From: a virus
Lineage: Duplodnaviria > Caudoviricetes
Length of the DNA: 64,000 nucleotides
Reading direction: 5' to 3' (one strand)
IMG/VR virus record: IMGVR_UViG_3300010885_080481
Of the stretch, positions 21,542 through 63,259 are shown one piece after another (within the stretch, counting starts at the first letter, position 1; the number at the start of each line of letters is the position of its first letter). Position numbers and translations under genes: made by a program. The notes under the pieces were generated by a model that was given only the letters and a program-made list of their open reading frames with translations, had not been told where the DNA came from and ran no database searches.

Positions 21542-21754
21542 ATGAATGATATTTTACGCCGCTACATCGTAGAAGTTATTAAGACGGATTCCTTGGTAGA
21601 CGAGGATGAAGAAAATTCAGAATCAGACGTCAACGAATTTAGCGGCGTTGCATCCATTGCAGGTTTCACTGCACCTCTAGGCATGTCTGGTCAAGATATG
21701 CAAGGTCCTGGGGTCAAAGAGAGAAAAAAGAAGAAAAAGTCGACTTGGAAATGA
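21542..21754 (+). CDS. Small hypothetical protein with leader-like ILRRYIVE
   Basis: 70 aa with an acidic middle and a basic C-terminus. Confidence 0.6.
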   Translation: MNDILRRYIVEVIKTDSLVDEDEENSESDVNEFSGVASIAGFTAPLGMSGQDMQGPGVKERKKKKKSTWK

Positions 21755-21755
21755 C

Positions 21756-22064
21756 ATGAAACGTCTGATCCTACCTTACTTTTCTTTGTTCGTTTTAGGG
21801 GTTCTAGGGGCTCATATAACAAAGAAAGTTCAAAGTGGAACTTTTCCTATATGGGCCACCATAGGGCCTTCTATCTTCAGTGGTGTGCTGTGGGGGTGGA
21901 TTGCACAGAGATCACAGAGTCTTAGCCTCATGTCTGTGCTCTTTGATGTCGTTTATACGGCCGCGTTCGTTTTTGGTTTTTTTCTCTTAGGAGATAGACT
22001 CACACCTCTTCAGATTGCAGGATTCGTCGTGTCACTCATCGGTGTCGTAATGATGGCAGCTTGA
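21756..22064 (+). CDS. Small four-helix membrane protein (SMR/DMT-like)
   Basis: 102 aa with four hydrophobic segments. The C-terminal GDRLTPLQIAGFVVSLIGVVMM is typical of DMT/EamA halves. Confidence 0.6.
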   Translation: MKRLILPYFSLFVLGVLGAHITKKVQSGTFPIWATIGPSIFSGVLWGWIAQRSQSLSLMSVLFDVVYTAAFVFGFFLLGDRLTPLQIAGFVVSLIGVVMMAA

Positions 22065-22170
22065 TTCACACTATCGTGATATTTATATTGTCGACTTGAT
22101 CGGCGCGGAATCGGGTTAGGAAGAGGCAAAAATGCAAGACCTACTTTTGTTCTGTCCTGAAAGGACATCG

Positions 22171-22199
22171 TGCAAAGATTACTCAACGAATGTTAGTTT
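22171..22199 (+). promoter_or_regulatory. Sigma70-like promoter upstream of SSB
   Basis: TGCAAA, 17 nt, TAGTTT with TGn. The same -35 and spacing occur upstream of dnaE. Confidence 0.4.
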
Positions 22200-22259
22200 G
22201 ATACAACTCTTTCGTTGCAGGTTAGGTTGACAAACACTCGGATTGATAAGCTCGATCGC

Positions 22260-22278
22260 TTATGACACGGTGTCATAA
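22260..22278. promoter_or_regulatory. Perfect 19-bp palindrome, candidate operator
   Basis: TTATGACAC-G-GTGTCATAA, 46 nt before the SSB start. Confidence 0.55.
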
Positions 22279-22324
22279 CATCGAAAATTGAAGTCGAAAG
22301 AGGAAGCGGAATAGGAAAACAAAA

Positions 22325-23164
22325 ATGGCAATTGATCTAGAAGCAATTAAGCGTCGTGTTGCAGAGCTCAGTGGCGTGAGGAAGACGTCGTCCGTTCAGA
22401 TGTGGAAGCCACAAATTGGAGAATATAAGATTCGCTGTCTGCCTTGGAAGAATTCTCCTGAAGGCCAGCCTTTTGCAGAGAGGTGGTTTTACTACATCGG
22501 AGAGAATGCAGGCCTCCTTGCTCCAAATCAGTTTGGAAAGCCAGATCCAATCAACGATCTGATCCGTAAGCTGTACAGCAGCGGCAAGCCTGACGATCGA
22601 GTTCTTGCAAAGAAGCTTGCGCCTAAGATGCGTTGTTATGCCCCCGTCATCGTCCGCGGTGAGGAGGATAAAGGTGTGCAGGTCTGGGCTTTCGGTAAGA
22701 TCGTCTACCAACGTATGCTTGGTTTCTTCCTCGATGAGGAGGTCGGCGATATTCTAGATCCAAATCAAGGATTTGATTTGAAAGTGACGATCTCAAAAGC
22801 CCCCGGTAAACAGTTCAATGATACGATGGTGGATCCTGCTCGACGACCTTCAAAGCTTCATGAGGATCAAAAAACCATGGCAACTTGGCTGGAGAATATT
22901 CCAAACATCGATGACATGTATCGTCTAAAGTCCACTCAAGAGATTGAAGCTGTTCTCAACAATTGGCTCAACGGTGGTGCTACTGATGACACACCAACAG
23001 AGACAACCCGTGGTCCAGCCACAGCAGATGCTCTTGATGACTTGGTTGCTGAAGTAAAAGCCTCATCGCCAGACAAACCAAAGAAAGTAAAGAAAGCTGA
23101 TGATGACTCTCCAAAGAAACAATCATTAGATGATGCGTTCGCAGACCTGATGGGCGACGAGTGA
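22325..23164 (+). CDS. Single-stranded DNA-binding protein (T4 gp32-like)
   Basis: MAIDLEAIKRR start, IRCLP, WFYY, DPI, PVIVRGEE, WAFGK, GFDL and an acidic tail LDDAFADLMGDE. Confidence 0.8.
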   Translation: MAIDLEAIKRRVAELSGVRKTSSVQMWKPQIGEYKIRCLPWKNSPEGQPFAERWFYYIGENAGLLAPNQFGKPDPINDLIRKLYSSGKPDDRVLAKKLAPKMRCYAPVIVRGEEDKGVQVWAFGKIVYQRMLGFFLDEEVGDILDPNQGFDLKVTISKAPGKQFNDTMVDPARRPSKLHEDQKTMATWLENIPNIDDMYRLKSTQEIEAVLNNWLNGGATDDTPTETTRGPATADALDDLVAEVKASSPDKPKKVKKADDDSPKKQSLDDAFADLMGDE

Positions 23165-23171
23165 TTTAACT

Positions 23172-23213
23172 GTTCAAGCGCCGGGGAATTTTAATTTTCC
23201 CCGGCGCTTGAAC
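23172..23213. terminator. 17-bp perfect inverted repeat between ssb and recA
   Basis: GTTCAAGCGCCGGGGAA, 8 nt, TTCCCCGGCGCTTGAAC. There is no U-tract, so terminator function is uncertain. Confidence 0.5.
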
Positions 23214-23242
23214 TATTTAGTGAGTTAAAAGGATAATACACT

Positions 23243-27275: not shown

Positions 27276-27323
27276 AAAATTTGAAGTATAGTTATGCACC
27301 TAAATTATGAGTGGAGACAAACA

Positions 27324-29918: not shown

Positions 29919-30182
29919 ATGAAATTTAATCTTAAAGATATAAGGAAAATGGTCAAAGAAGAATATTCTAGGGCTATTCCTGAGTTTATTGTTAAACAAG
30001 CCGTAGAATCTTGTGTCGAAGACTTAAAACGTGTAATGGTCAACCACATTAATTCAAAATCTAACTCTCAGCAGAGCAGACAGAAGATGATAGTAAGAAT
30101 GAACCTGAACCTTGAAGAGTTGGAAAAGGAATTAAAGAATATTGTTGACGAGAAAATTTCAAAGTTTTTATCAGAGATTTAA
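29919..30182 (+). CDS. Hypothetical protein with leader MKFNLKDIRKMVKEE
   Basis: 87 aa with a GAGG SD; member of the shared-leader set. Confidence 0.65.
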   Translation: MKFNLKDIRKMVKEEYSRAIPEFIVKQAVESCVEDLKRVMVNHINSKSNSQQSRQKMIVRMNLNLEELEKELKNIVDEKISKFLSEI

Positions 30183-33262: not shown

Positions 33263-33772
33263 ATGAAACTTACAAAGAATCAACTACAAAACATCATTAA
33301 AGAAGAATACCTAAGAATTACGCCCGTTAAGAGAGGCCAAGTAATGTCCGAGGCCCGTGCTAACTATTTGGCTGAACAGATTCTAGAAGAAGGCCTTTGG
33401 GATTCTATCAAGGCTGGCTGGTCAGCTTTTAAAGGAGCGTTATCAGGAGGCGGATCAAAATTAGGGGATGATGCCGCCAAATTATTAGGTCCAGTCATTC
33501 AACAAGTTCAATCTGTTGCTCAAGCCGCCGCAAAAGCATCAGCTGACGTGCAAAGCTTCATTGGTTCTATTAAAGATGAAGCTGTAAAGAAAGCAGTTGA
33601 AGAAGCGAGAAAATCTTTTGAAAATTCTTTAAAAGGATCCATCAGTTCTGCTCTTTCGGATGGCATTAAAAATCTTCAATCTGCAGGAATGTCAGAAGAA
33701 GAAGCAAAGACTCTTGCTTCAACAATCTTATCAGCAGAGTTAGCTAACCTTGCTGGTAAAGGTGGTAATTGA
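33263..33772 (+). CDS. Hypothetical virion-type protein with leader MKLTKNQLQNIIKEE
   Basis: 169 aa, Ala-rich and helical, with an internal ILEEGLWD. Confidence 0.7.
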   Translation: MKLTKNQLQNIIKEEYLRITPVKRGQVMSEARANYLAEQILEEGLWDSIKAGWSAFKGALSGGGSKLGDDAAKLLGPVIQQVQSVAQAAAKASADVQSFIGSIKDEAVKKAVEEARKSFENSLKGSISSALSDGIKNLQSAGMSEEEAKTLASTILSAELANLAGKGGN

Positions 33773-36541: not shown

Positions 36542-37630
36542 ATGCGTCTAAGAATAACAGACCTACAAAAAATTGTCGAGCAGACAATTCAAGAAAAGCA
36601 GGCAATTGATAGTTTTTGTGAGGAAATAAAGAAAGCGTTCGGCCCAACAGTTATTGTTTCCAACACGCTAGAGTCTCTTGTAGAGCAAGCAAATTATCGT
36701 TTGGATGTTCTAGAAAGAACAGGCCGAGAGTCTTACATACCTTTTTCTTCAAAGATTGCATTGTCGCTGTCTTCGCACAAAGATCCAGAAGTTAGACGTT
36801 TAGTTGTCAGGTTGCTTCCTGAACATGCTGCTGTCAGCTTCATTAAGGATAAAGACTCCAAGGTGCGCGCCGCGGCCGCAAAAAAGTCTCCTTTAAAGTT
36901 AGTAGAAAGCGTGGCAAAGATTCATAGGGACGATGATCTTTTGCAAGACGTACTATTTCAAAAGCGTCTTGTCGAAGAAAAGTCTGCCTTTACCCAAGCT
37001 CAGCAAGGACCTCAAGATGAAGATGAATTTTTGAGTGATTGGTGGTATGAAAAAACAGCTCGTCAATTGATTCAAGATTATGGCCGGACTTTAGATACAA
37101 CATGGGTACCAGCAGCAGTAAGTCAGGTTTGTTCCAATAGATCAGTCAATAGATACAACGTTGATCCTTATAAACTGATGAAAGTCGTTGTGAAGATCCT
37201 TGCAGATCGTGATTCAGAGAAATTTGACAGGTTGGAGAATGCTCAGGTAGTTATAAAAGAATCTGCAAATGCTTCGTTCATAGGTGAAAATGAAATGACA
37301 GATTTAGTATCTGAGCTGTTAGAATCTAAACTGTCTCAGAGTGAGTACTTACATCGAGCAGATGTCATATTCGGTATCAAGTATGCTTTGATTCCACCCG
37401 GCATAAAGAAGCATACTTTAGGTGAAGTTAAGACTGGCAATGTTGAAGTTCCAATCGTGGGTTCTTTACCGCATTTACTTTCCCCTCGTTTCGTAGATGA
37501 GAGAGCTTTGGATACTTACGTTAACTATTGGAATTCTCGTCAATCATTAAAAGGTGAACCCTACAAGTTGTCATGGACTTCTCACGTTAGTTCCCAAAAT
37601 AAAATTAATTTTCACCTGGAGTTGAAATAA
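36542..37630 (+). CDS. Hypothetical protein with leader and short HEAT-like repeats
   Basis: MRLRITDLQKIVEQTIQE, DPEVRRLVV and DSKVRAAAA. Confidence 0.65.
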   Translation: MRLRITDLQKIVEQTIQEKQAIDSFCEEIKKAFGPTVIVSNTLESLVEQANYRLDVLERTGRESYIPFSSKIALSLSSHKDPEVRRLVVRLLPEHAAVSFIKDKDSKVRAAAAKKSPLKLVESVAKIHRDDDLLQDVLFQKRLVEEKSAFTQAQQGPQDEDEFLSDWWYEKTARQLIQDYGRTLDTTWVPAAVSQVCSNRSVNRYNVDPYKLMKVVVKILADRDSEKFDRLENAQVVIKESANASFIGENEMTDLVSELLESKLSQSEYLHRADVIFGIKYALIPPGIKKHTLGEVKTGNVEVPIVGSLPHLLSPRFVDERALDTYVNYWNSRQSLKGEPYKLSWTSHVSSQNKINFHLELK

Positions 37631-38194: not shown

Positions 38195-38665
38195 ATGAAA
38201 CTAACAGCTTCAAAATTACGACAAATTGTTAGAGAAGAAGTCAGTCTTGCAAAATCAGAAGATTCAACCAGATTTTTACATGGATCAGATTCAGGTCATC
38301 CGATGGACGATGAAGGATACATGGCAAAATCGCAAATCGCTTCTTTAAAAGAAATGGCAACAGAAGTTTGTGATCTTCTTAACAATGAAGATCAATTACC
38401 AGGTTGGGTTCAAAGTCACATCGCAGTAGCACATGAAAATCTTCAACAGGTTCATGGATATCTAATGGGCGATGAAAAGATGAGAAGCCAACACCAACCT
38501 CAAAGCATGATGCCTCTTGTTCCAGAAAGTTTCAAACGCTTCAACAAACTCGCCGAAGGGCACAATAGAATTACAACTCAAGAAATTGAAGAGTGGAAAA
38601 AGGGGAATTGGGGATTTCTTGAAGAAGATTTGAATGAATCTTCAAAAGATGATGAAGATTACTGA
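38195..38665 (+). CDS. Hypothetical protein with leader MKLTASKLRQIVREE
   Basis: 156 aa with EGYMAKSQI and DQLPGWVQSHI. Confidence 0.65.
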   Translation: MKLTASKLRQIVREEVSLAKSEDSTRFLHGSDSGHPMDDEGYMAKSQIASLKEMATEVCDLLNNEDQLPGWVQSHIAVAHENLQQVHGYLMGDEKMRSQHQPQSMMPLVPESFKRFNKLAEGHNRITTQEIEEWKKGNWGFLEEDLNESSKDDEDY

Positions 38666-40267: not shown

Positions 40268-40320
40268 GTGTTTAAATATGCGGTTGCATGAGATCATAAT
40301 TTGGAAAAGAAAATTTGCGG

Positions 40321-40349
40321 TGCAAATTAAAACTTCCATCGAATATAAT
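40321..40349 (+). promoter_or_regulatory. Sigma70-like promoter of dnaE
   Basis: TGCAAA, 17 nt, TATAAT. Confidence 0.55.
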
Positions 40350-40362
40350 GGGTGATAGACAA

Positions 40363-43300
40363 ATGAGTTCAAACTTACCTACAAGATTCGTTGGCCTTCA
40401 TGCGCACTCGACGTTTTCGCAATACGACGGCCTTGACTATCCTCAAGAACATATTGATTATGTTCTAGAGAATGGTATGGATGCGTGGTCATTGACGGAT
40501 CACGGTAACATGAATGGCTTCTGTCATGCGTTTCTTCACACTGAGAAGATGAAAAAGTCAGGAAAGAATTTTAAGTTCATTCCTGGCTGCGAGATGTACG
40601 TCCATCCTGATCTTGGACAGTGGAAAAAAGATCTTGAAGCTTCCAAAGCGAAACCTGCCAAGGACGAGTCGATCATCACTCCCATCACCGCAGTTGTTGA
40701 CGGTGATGATGAAACGACCGATGTAGGTACTGATGAAGCTGCTCTAACGGTTGAGAATGAGGATGAGACGAAGTCAGGTAAGTACAATGACCCTGTGAAG
40801 AGACGACATCATCTCGTCGTCTTGCCAAAAACGTCAACTGGTCTTCAACGGCTGTTTCATTTGGTGTCTAGAGGCTATCTAGAGGGATTTTATCGTTTTC
40901 CCCGCATTGACTATTCGATGTTGAAAGAGGCGGCAAAGGGAGATCATCTCATGATCAGTACCGCTTGTCTCGGCGGGCCGTTGGCATTTGATGCCTTCGA
41001 ACAGCTACAAAAAGTCCCGTTTGAAGAACTGAAGCACCAACTTCTCAACGACAAGTCGTTGCTCGATCGAATCATTGCGACAATGAGCAACACCTACGAT
41101 AAGCTCGTTGATGCAGTCGGTAGAAATAACGTGTGCCTTGAGCTTCAGTTCAATAAACTACCAGCTCAGCATCTTGTCAATCGAGCACTTATCGAATTTG
41201 CTAAGAGAAATTCTCTTCGTGACAGGGTCGTAGTGACATGTGATTCTCATTATTCTCGTCCAGAGAATTGGAAAGAACGGGAGATTTATAAGAAGTTAGG
41301 TTGGCTCAACTATCAAAACTTTGATCCCAGCCTACTTCCAAAATCCAAAGATGATTTGAAGTGTGAGTTGTATCCGAAAAATGCCAAGCAGGTTTGGGAG
41401 TCGTATCTCACAACGACGGAAGGCATGGATTTCTATGACGATGAATTCGTCAAAGATGCGATCGAGCGTACTCACGATATCGTCCACAATGAGCTCGGTG
41501 ACATTCAACCTGACAAGACCATGAAGCTTCCTTCATACGTGATTCCTGAAGGATCCACTGAAGATAAGGCTCTGGTGTCTGCTTGCAAAAACGGGTTGAA
41601 GTGGCGTGGTCTGGATGATAGATCTGATTATATCGAAAGGATCAGGTATGAGCTTGGCATCATCAAGGGGAAGAAGTTCTCTCGATACTTCTTGACGATG
41701 AAAGCAATCATGGACATCGCCCGCGAGCACATGCTGATCGGCCCAGGCCGCGGATCGGCCGCCGGTTCACTTGTGGCCTATGTTCTTGGAATTACGAATT
41801 TGGATCCAATTGAATATGATCTTTCTTTTGAAAGATTCTTGAATCCATCTAGAACAGGTGCCCCTGACATCGATTCTGACATCTCCGACCGTGATCTTCT
41901 CATCGAGCTTCTCAGAAAGAATCTCGGTGACAGGAACGTCATTCCCATCTCAAACTACAATACCTTTAGACTTAAGAGTCTCATCAAGGACATCGCTCGA
42001 TTCTACAGTATTCCGTTCGAGGAAGTCAATGCAGCACTTGCACCCGTCGAGGATGACGTAAAGAAAGAAGTCTTTAAACCAGGTACTGATAAGAATCTTT
42101 TCGTTCTTACATACGAAGATGCAATCAAGTACTCCAAATCTCTACAAGATTTCATTGCGGCGCACCCTGAGGTCGCTGAACCCATCGAGATCCTGTTTAA
42201 GCAGAATCGTTCTCTAGGTCGACATGCAGGTGGAGTCATCGTTTCAGAAGACATTGCTGAGAGAATGCCGTTGATCTTGGCTCGCGGTGAGGCCCAGACG
42301 CCTTGGGTGGAAGGCATGAACTATAAACACCTTGAAGAGTTTGGGTGGATCAAGTTCGACTTGCTGGGTCTCGAAACTCTACGAATCATTGAGCGTTGCA
42401 TCGGTTTGATCCTTGAACGTCGTGAAGGTGTGAAAAACCCAGATTTTAATCAGATCAAGGCTTGGTTTGATAAACACATGGACCCTAAGAACATTGATTT
42501 GAATGATCAAAAGGTCTATGAATATGTGTATCATGAAGGGAGATTTGCAGGCATCTTCCAATTAACGCAGACCGGTGCCCAACGGTTATTCACGAAGGCA
42601 AAACCTCGTAGCATCATCGATATTGCGACCTTGACTTCAATCTATCGTCCTGGTCCCCTCGCCGCAAACGTTGATAAACTCTACATTGATGCCAAGAACA
42701 ATCCTGATAAGATTGATTATCAACATCCATTGATCAAGAAGGTCCTCGAATCAACGTACGGATGCATCATCTTCCAGGAGCAAACGATGCGTCTCTGCTC
42801 CGTGGTTGCAGGCTTTCCTGAGGCCGAGACAGACACCATCCGTCGTAACATCATGAAGCGTAGCGCATCGAAGAAAGACGATGCGGCCGCGGATGCTCGT
42901 AAGGCAAAGGAAGAGTTTATCACCGGAGCAGTTAGGAATGGCGTCAATGAGAAGGTGGCCTCTGAGCTTTATGACAAGATTCTCTTCTTCTCAGGGTATG
43001 GCTTCAACGCATCTCACGCTGTGTCTTATGCCATTGATTCTTATTACTGTGCTTGGCTCTTGACGTATTACGAAGAGGAATGGCTTTGCGCATACCTTGA
43101 GTCCATGTCGGGAAACGATGAGAAACGCGCTAAGGCTTTCTCTGAGGTAAAAGCTCTAGGTTATAAGATCGTTCCCGTTGACGTCAACTACGCTACAAAG
43201 AGTTGGACCATCTTAGAAGGTAAGCGGTTCATGCCAAGCTTCTTGTCTTGTAAGGGCATCGGAGAGGCAGCCATTGATGAAATCATCGAGAATCGACCAT

Positions 43301-45494: not shown

Positions 45495-46484
45495 ATGAAA
45501 GTATTGATCACTGGTGTTGCAGGTCTTTTAGGTGCGAATTTTTCTCGTCATCTTTTGTCCAAAGGACATGACGTCGTTGGCATCGATGATTTGAGTGGAG
45601 GATACGCAGATTCCGTACCAGAGGCTGTAAAGTTTTATCAAGTTGATCTTGCTGAAAGGTTGCAAGTCGAAGAAGTTTTTAAGACCGAAAAACCTGATTT
45701 CGTGTTTCACTTCGCTGCCTATGCTGCTGAAGGCCTCAGTCCGTTCATTAGGAATTACAACTACACGAACAACGTATTGGCCTCGGCAAACGTCATCAAC
45801 GCCTGCGTCAATCATGACGTGAAAAAAGTCATCTTCACTTCTTCAATGGCGGTCTACGGTGAGGGTCGTCCTCCTTTTAGTGAAGACCAGCTTCCGACTC
45901 CTGAAGATCCTTACGGAATCGCCAAGTATGCAGTTGAGATGGACCTGAAGTTAGCTCACAGTATGTTCGGTCTACGTTACAGTATCGTTCGCCCTCACAA
46001 TGTGGTCGGCATCTATCAAAATATTTGGGACAGGTATCGAAACGTTATTGGAATTTGGATTCGTAAAGCTCTCATTGGTGAGCCTCTTACGATTTTCGGT
46101 GATGGGTCGCAAAAAAGGGCTTTTTCTGATATCAAGTTCTATATGGACCCATTCGAAAAATTGATGTCTTCTTTTGACGGAGAAACATTCAATATTGGAG
46201 CAGATAAAGATTTTACGATCAACGAAGCCTGCGATTTGGTTATCGATGTTGCAGCTGAACTTGGTATCAAAGCGACCAAGGTTCATCTAGAAAAACGTAA
46301 TGAGGTTCACACCGCCTATTGCGACCACGCAAAAGCTCATAAGCTTTTAGATTTTAAAGATGAAACGAATCTTCGTGATACAATCAAGCAGATGTTTGTC
46401 TGGGCTCAGCAGCAACCAAATAGACAAATTAAAAATATGGATTATGAGATTGAAAAGAACATGTATTCTTTTTGGAAGAAATGA
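45495..46484 (+). CDS. NAD-dependent NDP-sugar epimerase/dehydratase 1 (extended SDR)
   Basis: GVAGLLG, FTSS and YGIAK. Start at 45495 has a GAGG SD. Confidence 0.9.
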   Translation: MKVLITGVAGLLGANFSRHLLSKGHDVVGIDDLSGGYADSVPEAVKFYQVDLAERLQVEEVFKTEKPDFVFHFAAYAAEGLSPFIRNYNYTNNVLASANVINACVNHDVKKVIFTSSMAVYGEGRPPFSEDQLPTPEDPYGIAKYAVEMDLKLAHSMFGLRYSIVRPHNVVGIYQNIWDRYRNVIGIWIRKALIGEPLTIFGDGSQKRAFSDIKFYMDPFEKLMSSFDGETFNIGADKDFTINEACDLVIDVAAELGIKATKVHLEKRNEVHTAYCDHAKAHKLLDFKDETNLRDTIKQMFVWAQQQPNRQIKNMDYEIEKNMYSFWKK

Positions 46485-51260: not shown

Positions 51261-51554
51261 ATGAAGAAATTATCAGAAAAAGAAATTATCCGTTTAATGC
51301 GAGAAGAATGGATTAAAAAAGTCAATGGATTGTTGTCTGAAAAAGCAGAAAAAAATTCAGACAACTTAAAAATGCTGGCAAGAGTGAACGGAAAAGAAAA
51401 GTTAGTGATCTCTCCAGATCTAAAAGTCGAAAAGGACAATTTTCTTTATACTGTGGTCAGCGTAAATGAAAAAGAAGTTACTTTAAGAAAACCTTCTGGC
51501 GAAGAATTCACTATCACGTCAAAAGAGTTTGAAGAAGAATTTGAAAGAGAATGA
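51261..51554 (+). CDS. Hypothetical protein with leader KEIIRLMREE
   Basis: 97 aa with a beta-rich C-terminal half. Confidence 0.65.
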   Translation: MKKLSEKEIIRLMREEWIKKVNGLLSEKAEKNSDNLKMLARVNGKEKLVISPDLKVEKDNFLYTVVSVNEKEVTLRKPSGEEFTITSKEFEEEFERE

Positions 51555-51567
51555 TGGAGTTTGCATT

Positions 51568-52308
51568 ATGAACAAAAACAATAATGATAAAATTGAATTA
51601 GATAACATCTTAAAAAGCGTGGTCAAGAACTCCATCGCCAAGCACGCTCCTGTTTCGCAACTTCAAGAAGTTGCTGATGATTCAAATTCTTTAAAGGAAG
51701 CATACGTAGCTGAACCTAAAGTTTTTAAACAGGTAACAGAGTTTGTTACCCAAAAAACCAAAAGTGCTCATTATGATCTTTACAAGGGTTATACTGAATC
51801 TTTGACTAAAGTATCTGCCAAGCTAGATTCTGTCAATAGACCAGATGCAAATCCTAGAAGTTCTGAATACGCTTCATTGAAAAAAGATGAAGTTTATAAT
51901 CTAAATGCAACATGGTTACATGAATTATATTTTGCTAACTGTTTTGACCCACATTCAGAAATTACTATGGATTCCATGTCTTATCTCAGGCTTGAGAGAG
52001 ACTTCGGCACATTCGAAGATTGGCAACGAGATTTTATTGCCTGTGCATCAGCTGCAGGAGTTGGTTGGGCTGTTTGTGGATATCACATGTTCTTACAACG
52101 GTATGTTAACACGTTCGTCGGTCTGCACGATCGGAATGTGATGCTAGGGTTGTATCCAATCATGGTTGTAGACATGTGGGAACATGCTCATAGAGATTAT
52201 CTTAATGATAAAAAGAGCTACATAGTTTCTCAAATGAGAGAAATTAATTGGAATGTAGTAGAAGAGAGAGTAGTTAAAGCAGAACAGATAGCGCAGGCGT
52301 TGAAATGA
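51568..52308 (+). CDS. Fe/Mn superoxide dismutase-like protein with N-terminal extension
   Basis: HYDLYKGY, LHELYFAN, GWAV and DMWEHAH. Confidence 0.75.
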   Translation: MNKNNNDKIELDNILKSVVKNSIAKHAPVSQLQEVADDSNSLKEAYVAEPKVFKQVTEFVTQKTKSAHYDLYKGYTESLTKVSAKLDSVNRPDANPRSSEYASLKKDEVYNLNATWLHELYFANCFDPHSEITMDSMSYLRLERDFGTFEDWQRDFIACASAAGVGWAVCGYHMFLQRYVNTFVGLHDRNVMLGLYPIMVVDMWEHAHRDYLNDKKSYIVSQMREINWNVVEERVVKAEQIAQALK

Positions 52309-52856
52309 AGAATAAGAAGCAAACGTCCATGACAGCAGGTCTACTTCGTAGGATTATTGCTGAAGAGATAAAAAAGGTCATTCTAGAATCCCCAGAAAAA
52401 GAACTGAAAGAAGATTCTGTGGATTTACAAATAGATTCTTATTTCGTTGACTATGAATCAGAAGCTAAGAGGCTTAAAGCTGAAGGTACAGATTTTCGTA
52501 GGTTGACTCGTCAATTTCTGCTAGAGGCGGAAGATGATAAAGAGTCTAAGGAAGACAAGAAAGATTCTGCGGACAAGAAAAAGCTGTCTGTTGAGGACAT
52601 AGATTTAGAAAATTTTGCTGTTGGTGTGGTAAGGCTTATCGATAATTACGATTCTTTACTTGAAATAAAGTTGACGATAGCAAAAAGAGCTACAAATTTC
52701 TTATTAAAAAATTATGATGCTTTAACCGCTAAGGAATTTAAGGAGATTTTATCAGAACAGTTTGATATCTTCGTAGATCACCCAGAACAAGCAGATGAAC
52801 CTTATCTAGCACCTCCTGCCGACAGAGCTTTAGGTCCATCGGGGGGTGCGACTTGA
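52305..52856 (+). CDS. Hypothetical protein with leader LLRRIIAEE
   Basis: 183 aa, acidic. Confidence 0.65.
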   Translation: MKNKKQTSMTAGLLRRIIAEEIKKVILESPEKELKEDSVDLQIDSYFVDYESEAKRLKAEGTDFRRLTRQFLLEAEDDKESKEDKKDSADKKKLSVEDIDLENFAVGVVRLIDNYDSLLEIKLTIAKRATNFLLKNYDALTAKEFKEILSEQFDIFVDHPEQADEPYLAPPADRALGPSGGAT

Positions 52857-54734: not shown

Positions 54735-54742
54735 ATAGTTAT
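54735..54742 (+). promoter_or_regulatory. Candidate late-promoter motif ATAGTTAT
   Basis: Intergenic, 11 nt upstream of a gene carrying the shared leader. Confidence 0.45.
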
Positions 54743-54753
54743 CAGAGATAATC

Positions 54754-55725
54754 ATGAAGCAAGTTATTATAGCAGAATCAGCGTTACGAGAAATTTTGCG
54801 AGAAGAAATGAGTTCATATCATTCAGATTCTCAACCTTCAGTAACGATGCCGGTCAACGTTAATCCCGTTGTGGCACCTGATGCTCCTGAAGTAGACTCT
54901 ACTAATGACAATTTTATTCCAAAGAATAAAACAGAACTTTTGTCGGCTCTACGGATGTTGTGTAATGTTAATGATGATGAAGTTCCTGAGGTTTATATAA
55001 CAATAAAAGATTCGTTGCAAAAGCAAGAGGAAAAAATGGGCAAAAATGACGTCAAAGAATCAATAAGACTCGCTGTAAGAAAGATGCTATCTGAAATTTC
55101 TGCGAGTGAAAAAAAGCAAGCTGCAGCTGATAAATTGTGGAGCGAGCTACCGCAAGTGGATCCTTCTAAGTATCCGCCTGTTACCAAAGTACCTGCTGGG
55201 GCTTCTGCCCTCGGTGGCGAACCTGCTGAGAAAAAAGCAAAGTTTGAAAAGAACAAAGCACAGCTTCAAAAAACTTTTCAAACCATGAAAATGTCTGATA
55301 TCGAAGAAGAAGAACCAGCAAGTTCAGAGCCTGAAGCAAGAAAAAATGTAATGATGTCTGACGTCGGTGGAGCATCGTTCAAGGAGATTGCTAAAGAACT
55401 AGGATTTGCAGCAGAATCAGGCGCAAAGCAAGCCGTTGAAAAAGCTCTTGCAAAAGCCAAATTTATTACGACAATGGATCTCCTCAATCCAGAAGAATTA
55501 GAAATAATAGTGTTACAGACCATGTCTGATTACATAGATTTTCTAAAGAGCTCCGGTGAACTTGACGCAGAAGAAGTTAAAATGTTGAAAAACAACCCAG
55601 GCGTAGTGAAAGAGCTTGATGGGTTTAGAGAATTTCTAGACAAGAACTTACGAAAAGTGAAAAAAACAGCAGAAGGTTCTTCAGCTGTTGAAGAATCTGT
55701 TGTTAAAGTTCGTAGAAAGAAGTGA
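54754..55725 (+). CDS. Hypothetical protein with leader ALREILREE
   Basis: Second leader-like segment SIRLAVRKMLSE; HTH-like ASFKEIAKELG. Confidence 0.65.
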   Translation: MKQVIIAESALREILREEMSSYHSDSQPSVTMPVNVNPVVAPDAPEVDSTNDNFIPKNKTELLSALRMLCNVNDDEVPEVYITIKDSLQKQEEKMGKNDVKESIRLAVRKMLSEISASEKKQAAADKLWSELPQVDPSKYPPVTKVPAGASALGGEPAEKKAKFEKNKAQLQKTFQTMKMSDIEEEEPASSEPEARKNVMMSDVGGASFKEIAKELGFAAESGAKQAVEKALAKAKFITTMDLLNPEELEIIVLQTMSDYIDFLKSSGELDAEEVKMLKNNPGVVKELDGFREFLDKNLRKVKKTAEGSSAVEESVVKVRRKK

Positions 55726-55728: not shown

Positions 55729-56490
55729 ATGTTCGTACAATCTGCTCCTGTTGTTGCAGCTGTTCAGTTCGATCCAAAGATTCTTGAAGTTCATGAAAAT
55801 TTGGCGACAGCTCGTTCTCTTGCTTTTGAAGCTGCAGCAAAAGGAGCAGCTGTCGTTGTTTTACCTGAACTGTGTATAAGCGGATATACTTTAAGGGACT
55901 ATAAAGAAGCCGCTGAATGTTCTCAAACAAAGAGCGGGTATCAGACGGAAGCTTTTCTTACAATCGCAAAAAATTGTAATTGTCATATTATTTTTGGGTA
56001 TGTTGAATTGTTAGAAGGAAAGCTTTATAATTCTGCTGCTGTTGTAGGCCCTTCTGGATTAGTAGCTAATTACCAAAAACACAATTTGTGGGCTAATGAT
56101 TACTTGTGGGCTGAACCTTCAGAGTCTGTAAATCCTGTTGTCACAACTCGCGCAGGTCGATTAGGAGCTTTGATTTGTAGAGATTCTCTTAACAATTATA
56201 GAGAATCATATAAATTCTACAAGCCGGATTTCCGATTTTATAGGCAAGGTTCAGTAGATACGATAGCATTATTAACGAACTGGTCAGGTCAAATTACCCA
56301 CCCAGATAATTCTTGGGTAGAGCTTGCAGAACAGACTAACTCTAACGTTATTGTTTCTAGCAGAGTTGGTAAAGAGAGAAATTTGAAGTTTAATGGAGGA
56401 TCTACGATAATAGATAAAAAGTTGAATGTTTGGACTAACGGATCTTCTTTCACCGAAGCCGCTGTCGTTGGAGGAACGGTTATTCTATGA
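55729..56490 (+). CDS. Carbon-nitrogen hydrolase (nitrilase/amidase family)
   Basis: Glu-Lys-Cys triad in LPEL, YQKHNL and LICRD. Confidence 0.88.
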   Translation: MFVQSAPVVAAVQFDPKILEVHENLATARSLAFEAAAKGAAVVVLPELCISGYTLRDYKEAAECSQTKSGYQTEAFLTIAKNCNCHIIFGYVELLEGKLYNSAAVVGPSGLVANYQKHNLWANDYLWAEPSESVNPVVTTRAGRLGALICRDSLNNYRESYKFYKPDFRFYRQGSVDTIALLTNWSGQITHPDNSWVELAEQTNSNVIVSSRVGKERNLKFNGGSTIIDKKLNVWTNGSSFTEAAVVGGTVIL

Positions 56491-56861
56491 AATTAACCGA
56501 TATTCATAAAAACTTTATTAAAACTTCTTCAAGATCTATTGTAGAAAATTTCTTGCCCATAAAGGCAGTCAAACCTGCAGAAATACCCGTCTTTGCAATT
56601 GAAAGATGGAAGAACGAAAATGGACTTTTGACAAAAAAGTTTATTTTTGAAAACCTTGACGACAGAAATAGGTTTATAAATTCTATCTTGAATTATGAGA
56701 TGAGCAGCGGACATCACGCTAATATCACGATTGAAAAAAATAATGTAATTTTACGTTTGATTACTAAAGACGTAGATAAGGTTACTGAACTTGATAAAGA
56801 ATATAGTTCTTACGCGGATACAATTCGTAAAGACATAGCGTATAATTCAAAAGATGAATGA
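56487..56861 (+). CDS. Pterin-4-alpha-carbinolamine dehydratase-like protein
   Basis: W....GLLTKKFIF, HHANITI and VTELD. Confidence 0.7.
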   Translation: MKLTDIHKNFIKTSSRSIVENFLPIKAVKPAEIPVFAIERWKNENGLLTKKFIFENLDDRNRFINSILNYEMSSGHHANITIEKNNVILRLITKDVDKVTELDKEYSSYADTIRKDIAYNSKDE

Positions 56862-57270: not shown

Positions 57271-57438
57271 ATGCAGGACGAAAAAGAAAATTACAATTTT
57301 GATAAATTCATGGATGATATTTTGATCAAAGAGTCTAAAAAGAACCCTGAACTTATTGAAGAAACCCCTCAAAGAAAATACGCGAAAAAATACACAGAAC
57401 GCTCGGCAAATAGAGTTAAATTTGTGAAGGTGAAGTGA
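57271..57438 (+). CDS. Small hypothetical protein (55 aa, below the ORF-track cutoff)
   Basis: AGGAG SD, MQDEKENYNFDKFMDDILIKES...KVK, and a stop overlapping the next ATG. Confidence 0.55.
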   Translation: MQDEKENYNFDKFMDDILIKESKKNPELIEETPQRKYAKKYTERSANRVKFVKVK

Positions 57439-57920
57439 TGTCGAAACCGAATGCGACAATAGCTAATGGAAAGTCTCTTCGAGAATTTTTAAGCGCAGTG
57501 ATCGATGATTCTCTACGTAAAAGGATCGTAGAAGGAGAAGATGAAGAGAAGCTGTCTTCAGGTAAGATCGAAGTAAAAGATGTGATAGAAAAGTTAAACA
57601 TCATTCGATCTGGTAAATCGCTGAAGGATGAAGAGGTTAAAAAAGGCATGGAAGATTACATGAATGATCTTGATGATGCCGAAAAAACTGCCTTGTTTTC
57701 ATTCTTAAAAGGTATATCAGAAATTATTACTGTAGGTACTCCAGGAGAGGAAGCGACTGAGCCAGCCGAGGGTCCTGCAAAAGTAACGATGGAAAAGAAA
57801 CCTGGAAAACAAAAAGTTGGTGTAAAACCTAATGTGATTAAAAAACCTGGCGAAGATAAAGAAAAGAGTGCTACTTCCGTAGAAGACACGACTCCTCCTA
57901 TAAAAGCAACTAAAAAATAG
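57435..57920 (+). CDS. Hypothetical protein
   Basis: 161 aa with leader-like SLREFLSAVI...IVE and LNIIRSGKSLKD. Confidence 0.65.
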   Translation: MMSKPNATIANGKSLREFLSAVIDDSLRKRIVEGEDEEKLSSGKIEVKDVIEKLNIIRSGKSLKDEEVKKGMEDYMNDLDDAEKTALFSFLKGISEIITVGTPGEEATEPAEGPAKVTMEKKPGKQKVGVKPNVIKKPGEDKEKSATSVEDTTPPIKATKK

Positions 57921-57926: not shown

Positions 57927-58142
57927 TTGCTCATGGAAAACGTTAGAAACATCTTGCTTCCAAATGGAAGCACACTCGAAGTTACTATAAAACCTGGATT
58001 TCTTGAAAAGGTTGCTGCTCAATTTAATCTGAACGAAACCAAAAACGTGTCAAACGAGCATATACGCATGTATATATTTGGAGCATTCAAAAATGCTGTA
58101 GATAAGGTTGAAAATGTCGGATTCGGAAACAATTTTACTTGA
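57927..58142 (+). CDS. Hypothetical protein
   Basis: 71-aa ORF that tiles between its neighbours. Confidence 0.5.
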   Translation: MLMENVRNILLPNGSTLEVTIKPGFLEKVAAQFNLNETKNVSNEHIRMYIFGAFKNAVDKVENVGFGNNFT

Positions 58143-58383
58143 ATATGTTAAACTAATTTTAGAAAAGAAAATTAGAGAAGCTGACATTTCTGATGGAAAA
58201 AAAGCGAAGTGGGGCTCTAAAAAGCATATCGCGGATCTTCAACGTCGTCTTAAGGATGCAGAGTATTGGCGTGACAAGCAGAAAAAAGGATCAGAGAAAA
58301 GAGCATACTACAGAGGCATAGTGAATGACATAAAAAGACAGTTGAAAAATGCCCTTAGAGATGCTGAAAATTTCGAAGGCTGA
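58114..58383 (+). CDS. Hypothetical protein with leader ILLEYVKLILE
   Basis: Basic C-terminal part. Confidence 0.6.
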   Translation: MSDSETILLEYVKLILEKKIREADISDGKKAKWGSKKHIADLQRRLKDAEYWRDKQKKGSEKRAYYRGIVNDIKRQLKNALRDAENFEG

Positions 58384-58911: not shown

Positions 58912-59154
58912 TTGACAGAAGAAGAAGCAATAGATGAATCTCTAAACTTTGTGGCAAGATATACCTCCAGTGTATCCGATTGGATTACTATAAAAAAAGA
59001 ACTTCTTAAGTCTTTGCCCCCTCAATATAGGAAACGTTTTTCGACAAGAGATCCTGTCACTAAAAAACAATCGATGAACGATTTTGAAATATCCTTGTCT
59101 AAAAAATGGGAAAGCATAACAGGAAAAAAGTTGATATTTAATGGCCATGAATAA
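58912..59154 (+). CDS. Hypothetical protein
   Basis: 80 aa with a TTG start next to the NUDIX stop. Confidence 0.5.
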   Translation: MTEEEAIDESLNFVARYTSSVSDWITIKKELLKSLPPQYRKRFSTRDPVTKKQSMNDFEISLSKKWESITGKKLIFNGHE

Positions 59155-60295
59155 CTTTGAAAAAGAGTCGAAATTATTAAGAGAATATGTTAGAAGAATC
59201 ATAAAAGAAGATTATGATTCTTCTTTTTACGATTCTTCTTATGGCGGATCAGGGAGCTCGTTTGGTTCAGGCGTGGGAAAATCCGTTGGTGGATCTAGAA
59301 CTCTTGCTGGAGCTGCAGTTGATCCCATTTTACGTGTGTTCAAAGTCGCTATAGGCAAATCTAAGGAAATTGGGGCAAGCCTAAAACAATTAGGTAAAGT
59401 AACCGCTGAAGCAATAAAAAGTGTCGCTTCAGGCGGGGAGTATGAAGGTCAATATAAAAAAATTCATGATGAATTTAAGAAAGATATCTCAAAGGTACGA
59501 AAAGAATATGGCAAACACTACGCTGAAGCGTGGGACGTTTTAGACAAAAGCGGGGTTACGACGCTGGCCTTTTTATATAATCCAGCTCTTTTCGTTGCTA
59601 AAAAAGCCGTGGTAGATCATCCTCGTATGGCCCTCGGCGCCATGATGGCAATGGCTACTGGTGGTTGGGCCGGTGCGGCGGTCGGAACCAAACTTGGTCT
59701 TGGCGCAGCCGCTGTAAAAACGGCCAAGGGTGTCGGTGCTGGCCTGGGCGTTGCAGGAGTAGCCGCAGCCAAAAAGATTTATGGTAATCGAAACAAAAAA
59801 GATGATGATGACCGTGAGGGCGAAATTGATGTAAAAAGGTTGCTTTCTCTAAGATCTGGTGGCGGCGATGAAGACAAGAGCTTATCAAATAACGTCAAGC
59901 CTGAATTACGTCAACACATGCAGCAGATAAAATCTCTTGTAAATAATCATTTCAATGAAGTAAGAGAAAAATTGACGAAGTTAAAAGGTATAAAAACACT
60001 GAAAGATCTAGGCGTGTCTGATGATAAAATAAGACAGCTGGAAGAATCTCTTAGTAGCTTGCCAGAAGAACAAAAAAAGAAAAAACTGGACGAGATTTTG
60101 GAGTCGTTAAAACAGAAAACTTTCGTGAATGTAATAAGAGCTTTGAAGCAAGAAAGAGATGGCATGCTAAGAAGTATGCTAAGTGCAGGAATTCCAGAAA
60201 ACGTCATTAAAGAAGAAGGTTCTATTTACGATCGATACAATAAAGAAATTTCTGAGATTGCAAGAATTTTTGGCATTGAAGCAGAAAACATCTAA
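59141..60295 (+). CDS. Hypothetical protein with leader LLREYVRRIIKED and a central Gly/Ala hydrophobic segment
   Basis: 384 aa; MALGAMMAMATGGWAGAAVG...GLGVAGVAAA; ATATTTAA overlaps the start. Confidence 0.7.
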   Translation: MAMNNFEKESKLLREYVRRIIKEDYDSSFYDSSYGGSGSSFGSGVGKSVGGSRTLAGAAVDPILRVFKVAIGKSKEIGASLKQLGKVTAEAIKSVASGGEYEGQYKKIHDEFKKDISKVRKEYGKHYAEAWDVLDKSGVTTLAFLYNPALFVAKKAVVDHPRMALGAMMAMATGGWAGAAVGTKLGLGAAAVKTAKGVGAGLGVAGVAAAKKIYGNRNKKDDDDREGEIDVKRLLSLRSGGGDEDKSLSNNVKPELRQHMQQIKSLVNNHFNEVREKLTKLKGIKTLKDLGVSDDKIRQLEESLSSLPEEQKKKKLDEILESLKQKTFVNVIRALKQERDGMLRSMLSAGIPENVIKEEGSIYDRYNKEISEIARIFGIEAENI

Positions 60296-60321: not shown

Positions 60322-60328
60322 TGGAGAC

Positions 60329-60619
60329 ATGCCTAAGCGTAATGCAAAAAATTACAATGTCGAGACGATGCAGCCTGATGAGATCAATACCTTGAGGGCT
60401 TTGGTTAAAGAATTTATTAACAAGATCGAGTCAATTGACAATGAAATCGAGCTGTTGAAGACAGATCGCAAAGAGGTCATCGAGGAGTACACTGAAAAAC
60501 TCGATATGAAAACTCTGCAAGCGGCTCTACGCGTTGTGAAAATTCAGCAAGGGGTTGAACATAAAGATACGTATGACCTTTTTCTTGAAGCGTTGACAGG
60601 CGTCCAACCCAGCCCATGA
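60329..60619 (+). CDS. DsbA/GapR-like (DUF2312-like) DNA-binding protein
   Basis: EFINKIESIDNEIELLK.DRKEVIEEY...LD.KTL..A.RV.K. Confidence 0.6.
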   Translation: MPKRNAKNYNVETMQPDEINTLRALVKEFINKIESIDNEIELLKTDRKEVIEEYTEKLDMKTLQAALRVVKIQQGVEHKDTYDLFLEALTGVQPSP

Positions 60620-60984
60620 AAGGAAAAAACATGGAAAATAAACACTCTGCTCTTCTAAAACCCAAAAAGACGTTTACATTAAAACTTTCTCTACCTGAGC
60701 TAATACATCTTAGAGATCTTTTTAGCATATCTTTACCCGTCGACTTAAAGACAACAGTCAGTCAATCTCTTGCGACAGGTCAAGGTAGACAGATCATCGA
60801 AACAAAACTCTGGAATAAACTCGTGTCCTTATGCAGAGAAGGAGAGATTCCTTTAAATGAAGAGGCTCCTGATTTTATCATTACGGTAACAGCACCTCCT
60901 GAGCTAGGAGTTTTTGAAGTTGCGACAGATTACGTTCAGCAAGAAGAGCAAGCTGAAGAAGAAGATGATGCGGATGACGAGTAA
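60616..60984 (+). CDS. Hypothetical protein
   Basis: 122 aa with an acidic tail. Confidence 0.6.
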   Translation: MKGKNMENKHSALLKPKKTFTLKLSLPELIHLRDLFSISLPVDLKTTVSQSLATGQGRQIIETKLWNKLVSLCREGEIPLNEEAPDFIITVTAPPELGVFEVATDYVQQEEQAEEEDDADDE

Positions 60985-60989
60985 AAGTC

Positions 60990-61409
60990 ATGCAAAAAAC
61001 AACGTATAAAGTAGGACAAATAATATACGTTTTGACATCTAAAGAGACCAAGATATATCCAGTTCAAGTAGTCGAAGAAATTATAAAGCGAAGTATAACT
61101 GGGGAATCGGTTTCTTACATTGTTAAGGCCGGCAAAGGAAATAAGCTCGTACCTATTTCTGATATTCAGGGAGAGTTATTCGAAGACGTAGAATCTCTTC
61201 GAGAAGTTCTCACTAAAAGAATCATCAACACAATCAATAACATAGTCAATGAATCAATTGAAAAAGCTTCTGAGTGGTATGAGCAACCAGAAGTTCATTC
61301 ACCTATCATCGAAAGTCCACCATTTGAACCTGACGACAAACAAGGCAGCATAGTCGTGAAGTTATCGGATGGAAAAATAGCGAATGTAAAACTGCCCAAC
61401 ATTTCATGA
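60990..61409 (+). CDS. Hypothetical protein
   Basis: 139 aa with an SH3-like beta N-terminus (YKVGQIIYV). Confidence 0.6.
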   Translation: MQKTTYKVGQIIYVLTSKETKIYPVQVVEEIIKRSITGESVSYIVKAGKGNKLVPISDIQGELFEDVESLREVLTKRIINTINNIVNESIEKASEWYEQPEVHSPIIESPPFEPDDKQGSIVVKLSDGKIANVKLPNIS

Positions 61410-61425
61410 TGCATAAAGGTACCAC

Positions 61426-62664
61426 ATGAACGATAATCGATTTCAAGGAATAGTTCGTAACTACACTGAGCAAGACGTAAGAAAGCTTCAGAACACGTTA
61501 AAGGTAGAACATACCTTGGCTAATCATGGAGCGCAGAAGCTTTGGAAGCTTATTAATTCCGAGCCATACGTTGCAGCCTTAGGAGCTCTCACGGGCAATC
61601 AGGCGGTGCAACAGGTCAAGGCAGGTCTCAAGGCTATCTATTTATCAGGATGGCAGGTAGCCGCCGACGCCAACCTTGCCGGTGAGATGTATCCTGATCA
61701 GAGTCTCTATCCCGTCAACAGCGTTCCGTCTGTCGTTAAGCGTATCAACAATGCGCTTCTACGTTCAGATCAGATCGATAACTCTGAAGGTAAGACCGGT
61801 ACCGACTGGTTTGCACCAATTGTTGCCGATGCCGAGGCTGGTTTTGGTGGACCACTCAATGCATTTGAACTTACCAAGGCTCTAATTGAAGCCGGAGCCT
61901 CAGGCGTCCATTTTGAGGATCAACTAGCCTCTGAAAAGAAATGTGGCCACATGGGAGGCAAGGTGCTCGTCCCAACTTCACAGTTCATCCGTACGTTGAC
62001 TGCAGCACGTCTGGCCGCGGATGTTATGGATGTTCCAACCGTCATTATCGCCAGGACGGACGCAGATTCAGCTAGCCTCATTACCAGCGACATCGATCCA
62101 TACGACAGAGACTACATCCTCGATGGCGACAGGACCCCTGAAGGATTCCATAGGCTGTGCCGAACAGGGCTTGAACGTTCGGTGGCTCGCGGTCTAGCAT
62201 ATGCTCCCTATGCAGACATGCTCTGGATGGAGACTTCAACCCCCGACCTGGAGCAGGCCAAGCTCTTCGCCGAGGCCATTCACAAGAAGTTTCCAGGAAA
62301 ACCCCTAGCCTACAATTGCTCACCCTCATTCAACTGGAAGAAGAACCTCGATGACTCAACCATCGCTAAGTTCCAACGAGAGCTCGCCGCCATGGGCTAT
62401 AAGTTCCAGTTCGTCACCCTTGCCGGCTTCCACTCGCTCAACCACTCCATGTACCAGTTGGCCCATGGTTATAAGGATCGAGGCATGGCAGCCTACTCTG
62501 AACTACAACAGGCTGAGTTTGCAGCTGAGAAGATCGGTTACACGGCCACGAAACACCAGCGAGAGGTCGGCACCGGTTACTTTGATGCAGTCTCTCAGGT
62601 TATTTCTGCCGGTAATTCATCCACGTTGGCGCTTCATGGATCGACTGAAGAAGAGCAATTTTAA
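61426..62664 (+). CDS. aceA: Isocitrate lyase
   Basis: [33 protein letters not shown], catalytic KKCGH (C173), [18 protein letters not shown] and KHQREVG.GYFD. Confidence 0.97.
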
Positions 62665-62710
62665 CTAAAAAAATCGTAGTTGATTTTTATTTATAGTCAG
62701 GAGGCGTATT

Positions 62711-62944
62711 ATGCGCGACCTGACACCAAGTGAATTAGGTGTTATGCTTTTCAATATTAAGGGAGATCTTGAGATTGTAGCTAACATTTTATCTAAGTGG
62801 AGAATGAGCGGACTAGGTCTAAATGGCATGGTCCCTCTTTCTATTATTGCTGCTGAAACAAAAACGAATACAACAATATCTGAAGTTGAAGATTTAATTC
62901 AGATATTAGCGAAGGTATCGAACAATCTGATTGATAGATATTGA
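62711..62944 (+). CDS. Hypothetical protein
   Basis: 77 aa with a strong AGGAGG SD. Confidence 0.6.
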   Translation: MRDLTPSELGVMLFNIKGDLEIVANILSKWRMSGLGLNGMVPLSIIAAETKTNTTISEVEDLIQILAKVSNNLIDRY

Positions 62945-62950
62945 CGTAAT

Positions 62951-63259
62951 ATGTCAACATCGATACTTCGCAAATTTATAAAAAATGTAATTTTAGAAGC
63001 AAAGATTGAAGCATCACCAGAGTACATGAAAAAGGAAATGGTGATGCAATCAATCCAAAGAGATCTTGCTTCTTTAGTTAGATTAGGGAAAATAAAAACA
63101 AAAGCTCAGATGGATGAATGGTTAGAATTCTATCTAGCACATCCTCCTGAAGGAGCAGAACCATCTGCGGTTAAGCTGGCAACTCAAACGTTAAAATCTA
63201 TACCAGATCCAAAGGTGTTCCTAGCACCAGGAGCAGTAGCCTCTGATCGTAAGAGATAA
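62951..63259 (+). CDS. Hypothetical protein with leader ILRKFIKNVILE
   Basis: 102 aa. Confidence 0.6.
   Translation: MSTSILRKFIKNVILEAKIEASPEYMKKEMVMQSIQRDLASLVRLGKIKTKAQMDEWLEFYLAHPPEGAEPSAVKLATQTLKSIPDPKVFLAPGAVASDRKR

Follow-up and report, generated by a model that had tools for sequence, protein, structure and literature searches.

The DNA analysed here (IMG/VR record IMGVR_UViG_3300010885_080481; 64 kb with 75 open reading frames, ORFs, referred to below as the window) comes from an uncultured freshwater T4-like jumbo phage. Twelve of the 75 ORFs have at their start an amphipathic helix that fits the pattern h-x-x-h-h-x-Glu (h, hydrophobic), a motif that is nearly absent within proteins. 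In our assessment, this shared N-terminus is probably a large, lineage-specific capsid-targeting and protease-leader system of the T4 type, as judged from sequence comparisons. A first-pass annotation of the same DNA had listed twelve such N-terminal strings on otherwise unrelated proteins and had proposed that they form an address tag for the phage head, comparable to the capsid targeting sequence (CTS) of phage T4. The analysis found each of the twelve strings at the start of its ORF and upheld computationally that the tag sits at the N-terminus, keeps a fixed register, is conserved as a peptide and is spaced as in the T4 CTS. The mature parts are diverse, fast-evolving and poor in further cut sites, which suits the related proposal of a modular, swappable set of proteins. 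The first reading is refined in that there are two leader subtypes.

The leader is enriched at protein N-termini

Enrichment of the motif at N-termini over internal positions was found with a strict pattern, a loose pattern, a scoring matrix, and under cross-validation. The strict pattern, [LIVM][RQKLI][RKQNEL][IMLFY][IVLM][RKAE]EE, has six matches in 20,293 residues, and all six lie within the first 25 residues. The loose pattern h..hh.E was found 15 times in 1,800 N-terminal positions versus 31 times in 18,043 internal ones (Fisher p = 7e-6), which corresponds to a five times higher density at the N-terminus. An eight-column matrix, at a score of at least 12, matched the N-termini of 8 of the 75 ORFs and none of the 17,443 internal positions. 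Against circularity, matrices were trained on one genome and tested on another, for which the main partner was the relative G003 (278 kb), collinear with the window and having homologues for 69 of its 75 ORFs in the same order. The matrix trained on this relative gave six N-terminal versus one internal match in the window (p = 1.4e-5), and the window-trained matrix gave 27 versus 7 in the relative (p = 1.5e-17); N-terminal enrichment under cross-validation was also upheld in three relatives. The second subtype, L[RL][EKR][YF][IVL], comprising the five weaker, long members (ORFs 21542, 57435, 58114, 59141 and 62951), has five N-terminal and no internal matches in the window, and seven versus two in G003.

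Eight ORFs were graded as strong members (21542, 29919, 33263, 36542, 38195, 52305, 54754 and 59141) and four as moderate ones (51261, 57435, 58114 and 62951). A six-frame scan of the window yielded no further convincing tagged members. Matrix matches on a dUTPase (24378) and on the Rossmann loop of a short-chain dehydrogenase/reductase (48231) were attributed to chance, and the superoxide dismutase-domain protein at 51529 was rejected as tagged cargo, its N-terminus scoring below the threshold.

Two leader subtypes in a fixed register

Type 1 leaders follow MK[LI]T..QL[RK].I[IV][KR]EE, with a Leu fixed at residue 8, while type 2 leaders follow LLRE[YF][VI]..[IL][IL].E. They end 11-23 residues from the Met (approximately 33 in 57435), and the pattern L..I[IV].E is present in all twelve; in 57435, Asp stands at the first site and I-V-E at the next. 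A sequence logo built on 52 distinct leaders of four genomes has the consensus M-K-[IL]-[TS]-x-x-[QDE]-L-[RK]-[RK]-[IL]-I-[RK]-E-[EV]-[LIV], and in 32 of the 52 the anchor Leu is found exactly seven residues past a Met. Since the first columns of this logo (M in 34/52, K in 35/52, I or L in 38/52, T or S in 27/52) lie outside the scoring matrix, they lend independent support to a register that is fixed relative to the initiator Met. The codons used for the same leader residues differ from gene to gene; thus, selection acts on the leader peptide, and an origin of the common start at the RNA level or by recombination was ruled out on the same grounds. The leaders do not resemble Sec or Tat signal peptides: charged and hydrophobic residues alternate (e.g., LRRIIKEE), and no hydrophobic run is present.

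Predicted cut site and comparison with known head-targeting systems

The T4 capsid targeting sequence was reportedly described by Mullaney and Black in 1996. The CTS of the T4 proteins IPI, IPII, IPIII, and Alt is removed by the prohead protease gp21 (reviewed in PMC9026906 and PMC3012670), which cuts after L/I-X-E, with CTS residues 4 and 7 assigned to targeting and residues 8 and 10 to processing (PMC9026906); 65 residues are removed from gp23 and 10 from gp24 (PMC9546572). As read here, T4 IPII and IPIII start with MKTYQEFIAE/A and gp24 with MAKINELLRE/S (the slash marking the cut, which in the window and its relatives is a predicted one), and their spacing, h..hh.E, is the same as that of the window leaders. 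When a matrix built only from the window leaders was run on 159 T4 ORFs, IPII and IPIII ranked second and third. In a four-way capsid alignment, Glu65 of T4 gp23 corresponds to the invariant Glu of ..QVLKE/S in the capsid protein of the lineage, and the lineage proteases have E[TM]IKE/S near residue 22. The leaders themselves end in I[IV][KR]E, so that the same type of site, with a cut predicted, is found on the capsid protein, the protease, and the tagged proteins. The cut would probably fall after the first Glu of the EE pair, which refines the first reading.

The window leader is thus like the T4 CTS in being a short propeptide at the extreme N-terminus (10-19 residues in T4), with hydrophobic residues three positions apart (i and i+3) and then [IL]-x-Glu at i+4 to i+6, on otherwise unrelated carriers. 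A further likeness is that the relatives have a Peptidase_S77 protease and a gp23-family capsid protein with a predicted cut at the homologous Glu. Unlike the T4 CTS, the window leader is longer (14-23 residues to the Glu with Leu fixed at residue 8, versus 10 in IPII and IPIII), and the lineage has its own consensus with two subtypes, known here from sequence alone. The number of carriers also differs, with about seven tagged genes in T4 versus about 12 in the 64 kb of the window and 26-32 per genome in a relative, and the tagged genes of this lineage are scattered amid metabolism genes as well as grouped in islands. The combination of a constant leader with fast-evolving, swappable mature parts, as in the G003 island at 30-48 kb, recalls the polymorphic ip loci of T-even phages, which hold different internal-protein genes having only the CTS in common (cited in PMC3012670); the scale, the leader sequence and the lineage are different.

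A comparison can also be made with the phiKZ-like giants, as in phiKZ, 201phi2-1, and SPN3US the propeptides of ejection or inner-body proteins are cut by a gp21 homologue at S/A-X-E (PMC5694885, PMC9026906). There, too, a gp21-related prohead protease cuts many proteins of the head interior after Glu, and the propeptides are thought to target the prohead. However, those propeptides are mostly longer than 100 residues, with Ser or Ala at P3 (PMC5694885), whereas the window leaders are short and have I, V, L, or M at P3, as in T4. Propeptides of more than 100 residues ending in S/A-X-E, the phiKZ type, were not found among the window leaders.

Diverse mature parts with the traits of a possible cargo

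The first-pass annotation had described the rest of each protein as unrelated. In an all-against-all blastp comparison, this held in the main, with matches confined mainly to the first 15-28 residues; the exception was one weak C-terminal match, between 33263 and 57435 (E = 7e-4). The tagged proteins range from 70 to 384 amino acids (aa), with unrelated sequences, and scans of ten of them gave no Pfam or PHROG match above threshold. Their median identity to the G003 orthologues is 52%, versus 74-78% for neighbouring genes (p = 1e-4 to 5e-4), while the leader itself is retained. Each mature part contains 0-1 further hh[KRA]E sites, which equals the background rate, and would therefore survive the loss of the leader. 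A clear case of modular use, to judge from the domain assignment, is provided by G003 45718-46455 (L076:5718-6455, minus strand), where the leader is joined to a PAP2-superfamily phosphatase domain above the Pfam cut-off; this protein may be a packaged enzyme.

The family of ORF 54754 has 196 metagenomic homologues, and the leader is kept across 25 aligned members (54754 and 24 others), with R12 nearly invariant. Its members consist of the leader, an indel-rich linker, a conserved PVxVSPVVDPSA block, and a C-terminal helix-turn-helix (HTH) resembling sigma-70 region 4, and the family may represent a packaged transcription factor. An AlphaFold2 model of 54754, of low confidence (mean pLDDT, the predicted local distance difference test, of 61.5) and used solely for the N-terminal helix and the linker, has an isolated helix at residues 8-20 followed by disorder at 21-58 (~38 residues).

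The leader and the head module in relatives

As the window is without head genes, the link of the leader to the head was drawn from relatives. These were retrieved with a back-translated pattern of the capsid C-terminal peptide, which gave 52 IMG/VR contigs (L012-L063), each carrying a gp23-type capsid gene with this peptide at its end. The conserved C-terminus in question is GTVTVLDMNII, and its back-translated pattern is a handy DNA marker to retrieve the lineage from contig collections.

Peptidase_S77, the gp21 family, was found above the Pfam cut-off in all five tested relatives that share the gene order or the tail sheath of the window, and the protease of a further relative, L038, corresponds to phrog_207. 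In the relatives examined, the capsid protein of the lineage corresponds to Pfam Gp23 and to phrog_138. In G003, 26-32 of 396 ORFs carry the leader, versus 0.8-1.8 expected. These include the orthologues of the tagged genes of the window, about 15 genes that form an island at 30-48 kb, a pair of small proteins encoded between the prohead protease and a putative scaffold (tagged in L038 as well), and the gene immediately 3' of the gp23-type capsid gene. Other relatives show the same picture. Across the 52 capsid-gene loci, the leader is present on 34 of 504 ORFs, versus 1.1 expected. The putative scaffold of the relatives contains leader-like motifs internally (e.g., PRIRELIEKE).

Alternative explanations and points of doubt

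Two of the observations on the head module, the tagged small proteins between protease and putative scaffold and the internal motifs of the scaffold, would also agree with a different fate of the tagged proteins. The helix could dock on the prohead core and be cut as proposed, with most tagged proteins being core or assembly parts that are degraded or expelled, as T4 gp22, gp67, and gp68 are during maturation, and not cargo that is ejected. The tagged proteins of the window, however, have 0-1 further hh[KRA]E sites and hence would not be shredded, their genes are dispersed outside the head module, their fast evolution is unlike that of core assembly parts, and they are unrelated sequences with lengths from 70 to 384 aa. 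Such a fate is possible for the head-module members and unlikely for the set in the window, and we consider it an improbable explanation of the leaders as a whole.

Equally improbable, in our assessment, is that the helix serves for docking or oligomerisation at a hub other than the capsid, such as the host RNA polymerase, a chaperonin, the membrane, or a second modifying or cutting enzyme of the phage. This proposal would fit the generic use of short amphipathic helices as interaction modules, the sigma-70 region-4-like HTH of the 54754 family, and the location of the tagged genes amid metabolism genes. It is opposed by the end of the tag, h-h-[KR]-E, which is the same as at the cut sites predicted for capsid protein and protease, by the presence of the tag on head-module proteins, and by the charged character of the leader, which has no hydrophobic core of the signal-peptide type.

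The tag could also be the recognition sequence of a modifying enzyme of the radical S-adenosylmethionine (radical-SAM) kind, as in precursors of ribosomally synthesized and post-translationally modified peptides. We regard this as highly improbable and have rejected it, since the enzyme was not found in five relatives or in the window: Radical_SAM matched none of the five relatives versus 14 of 14 control genomes, no CxxxCxxC enzyme is present in the window, and the tag is without a Cys-, Ser-, or Thr-rich core. Finally, it is hardly credible that the likeness is a by-product of selection on coding starts (AUG-AAA and A/T-rich codons for translation initiation) and not a protein signal, for although an initial MK is common among the leaders and AAA is favoured as a second codon, the conservation extends as far as residues 8-16, where particular Leu, Arg, Ile, and Glu residues are encoded by differing codons, most ORFs of the same genome are without the tag, and a T4-like control phage (Mel-JY01) shows none.

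Several points weigh against the capsid-targeting reading itself. No head gene is present in the window, and the evidence on protease, capsid, and head module is all from relatives; the tagged genes of the window are located amid nucleotide-metabolism genes. Type 1 leaders have Glu after the predicted cut, and the capsid protein and the protease have Ser, which makes the exact bond uncertain, and 57435 has Asp at its first site, a residue that blocks processing in T4 at that position (PMC9026906). The likeness to the T4 CTS is one of pattern only, as such short peptides are unable to show homology, and T4 gp24 ranks 16th of 159 with the window-leader matrix. The small tagged families of the head module gave an hhalign probability below 1% against T4 gp67 and gp68, so their likeness to these proteins in size and gene position does not reflect any detectable homology. 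The 54754 family is widely conserved and has a sigma-70 region-4-like HTH, for which a cytoplasmic role is conceivable. In addition, the expansion of the tag is absent from Microcystis phage Mel-JY01, the nearest cultured phage (capsid protein 35% identical), where 0 of 249 ORFs score at least 12; therefore, the large repertoire is a trait of the uncultured lineage and not of all T4-like phages.

Proposed mechanism and its reach

If the leaders do target the capsid, the amphipathic helix of 11-23 residues would dock the newly made protein on the scaffolding core of the prohead through its hydrophobic face (i, i+3, i+4, i+8). After closure of the shell, the gp21-family prohead protease would cut after the Glu of the terminal [IVLM]-x-Glu, the leader would be lost, and the mature protein would stay in the head with the DNA and be delivered to the next host, by analogy to T4 IPI-III and Alt. 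A diverse and fast-evolving cargo suits host-takeover or anti-defence proteins. Among the T4 internal proteins, IPI is a known restriction inhibitor. An extension that we consider unlikely is that the two subtypes are a sorting code for different places or fates in the prohead (e.g., cut and free versus uncut and anchored), with a cargo that may include the HTH protein of the 54754 family, injected with the DNA to redirect the host RNA polymerase before phage expression.

No published report of such an expanded leader repertoire was found in literature searches; the idea itself had been anticipated in work on T4 (PMC9026906). Should the tag function as it does in T4, sequence alone would suffice to list the proteins that a whole uncultured lineage injects. 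Such a list would cover about 8% of the genes, nearly all of them fast-evolving and with no known function, and would be a ready source of candidate host-takeover and anti-defence proteins. The cargo of T4-like jumbo phages would then be about as large as that of phiKZ-like phages, with the short T4 address label in use, which extends a known mechanism rather than revealing a new one.

Tagged ORFs of the window

All tagged ORFs are on the plus strand. Those of type 1 include the two with a canonical leader, at 33263-33772 (169 aa; leader residues 1-14, 33263-33304, MKLTKNQLQNIIKE/E; matrix score 20.2; orthologue leader MKITHNQLRRIIKEE) and at 38195-38665 (156 aa; residues 1-14, 38195-38236, MKLTASKLRQIVRE/E; score 21.1), both matching the strict pattern; a protein identical to the latter was found on four metagenome contigs. 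The ORF at 29919-30182 (87 aa) also has a type 1 leader that matches the strict pattern (residues 1-14, 29919-29960, MKFNLKDIRKMVKE/E; score 17.8) and that is retained in the G003 orthologue. Two further strict-pattern matches are the ORFs at 51261-51554 (97 aa; residues 1-15, 51261-51305, ..KEIIRLMRE/E), whose G003 orthologue has ..KEVVRLLREE and which is preceded by ATAATTA 30 nucleotides (nt) upstream, and at 52305-52856 (183 aa; residues 1-20, 52305-52364, ..GLLRRIIAE/E; score 19.5), where a second site, V-I-L-E, follows and the orthologue has MKIHLKELKKIIKD.

The leader of the 362-aa ORF at 36542-37630 covers residues 1-13 (36542-36580, MRLRITDLQKIVE; score 14.4), with a second I-Q-E at residue 18 and ATAGTTAT 26 nt upstream. 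This protein is possibly HEAT-like, a lead given only by weak Atlas similarity. In the 323-aa ORF at 54754-55725, the leader (residues 1-17, 54754-54804, ..ESALREILRE/E; score 16.3) is followed by a disordered linker and the C-terminal domain, and ATAGTTAT is located 19 nt upstream.

Type 2 leaders are found on five ORFs. The shortest, at 21542-21754 (70 aa), has its leader at residues 1-11 (21542-21574, ..ILRRYIVE; score 13.3) and ATAGTTA 13 nt upstream. The ORF at 57435-57920 (161 aa, GTG start) begins with ..SLREFLSAVIDD (to 57509), after which SLRKRIVE extends to residue 33 (57533); its G003 orthologue reads ..LSSFLSEIIKE/S, so that in the window Asp replaces Glu at the first site. In the ORF at 58114-58383 (89 aa, or with a TTG start at 58108), the leader covers residues 1-17 (58114-58164, ..ILLEYVKLILE/K), and the orthologue is 80% identical, leader included. 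The largest tagged protein (384 aa, 59141-60295) has a leader at residues 1-23 (59141-59209, ..KLLREYVRRIIKE/D; score 13.6) and then a Gly/Ser-rich linker; in the G003 orthologue, KLLREYVRRILTEE is kept and the remainder is 34% identical. The last ORF, at 62951-63259 (102 aa), carries its leader at residues 1-16 (62951-62998, ..ILRKFIKNVILE/A), with ..LKRLIFDFIME/S in the orthologue.

A weak extra candidate that was not in the first list, the 96-aa ORF at 60329-60619, has ..LRALVKE at residues 22-28 (score 11.5). Its identity to the orthologue is 83% over the entire length, which sets it apart from the other tagged proteins, and it is probably not a member of the set.

A candidate late promoter motif

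The octamer ATAGTTAT at 54735-54742 (plus strand) is promoter-like and has copies or close variants at 1316, 4373, 21529, 27288, 36516, and 51231. The motif ATA[GA]TTA(T) is positioned 6-40 nt before the starts of the tail sheath gene (1316), the tail tube gene (4373), an 871-aa gene at 27294 (27288), and four tagged genes. All five ATAGTTA sites on the plus strand are intergenic, 6-28 nt ahead of a start codon; the total count of the motif in the window is not above chance, and it is the placement that stands out. In G003, 40 of 78 ATA[GA]TTA sites fall in the ~4% of the DNA that is non-coding. ATA[GA]TTA is a candidate for the late promoter of the lineage, where T4 has TATAAATA, and its presence ahead of both tail sheath and tail tube genes hints at late expression of the four tagged genes.

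Other features of the window and its relatives

Nearly every gene of the window is on the plus strand. The first part (1-21 kb) encodes tail sheath paralogues, the tail tube, the baseplate hub, and giant structural proteins, and beyond 21 kb, replication and nucleotide-metabolism genes are interspersed with small ORFs without assigned function. Genes of auxiliary metabolism are found amid the tagged ones, namely a protein with the C-terminal domain of Fe/Mn superoxide dismutase (51529-52308), a carbon-nitrogen hydrolase (55729-56490), and a pterin-4a-carbinolamine dehydratase (56487-56861).

No close record at the DNA level was found for the window in a phage collection, and an exact 50-mer from it had no match in viral or metagenome contig collections. 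Contigs carrying proteins identical to those of the window are all at most 9.5 kb, and single window proteins used as queries for related loci returned short near-identical contigs only. The tail sheath matches only distant T4-type sheaths and is 48-57% identical in five long IMG/VR relatives among the 52 contigs.

In some relatives, a 476-aa HNH or homing-endonuclease gene lies directly 3' of the capsid gene (L038 9902-11332) and in others it does not (cf. L116 and L117), which suggests that mobile insertions occur at the 3' end of this gene. The tail sheath genes, of about 1,000 aa each, occur as tandem paralogues, two in the window (2-1141, cut by the window edge, and 1344-4343) and three in G003 (177649-187076), and these are 31-57% identical to the complete copy of the window (1344-4343). 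Lastly, the 1,206-aa ORF at 40315-43935 starts with a PHP-like 'HAHS' motif, recognised by eye, and may be a DnaE-type polymerase, while the 398-aa ORF at 19703-20899 matches part of the PHROG 'DNA polymerase' family phrog_17; both belong to a phage whose head and tail are of the T4 type.

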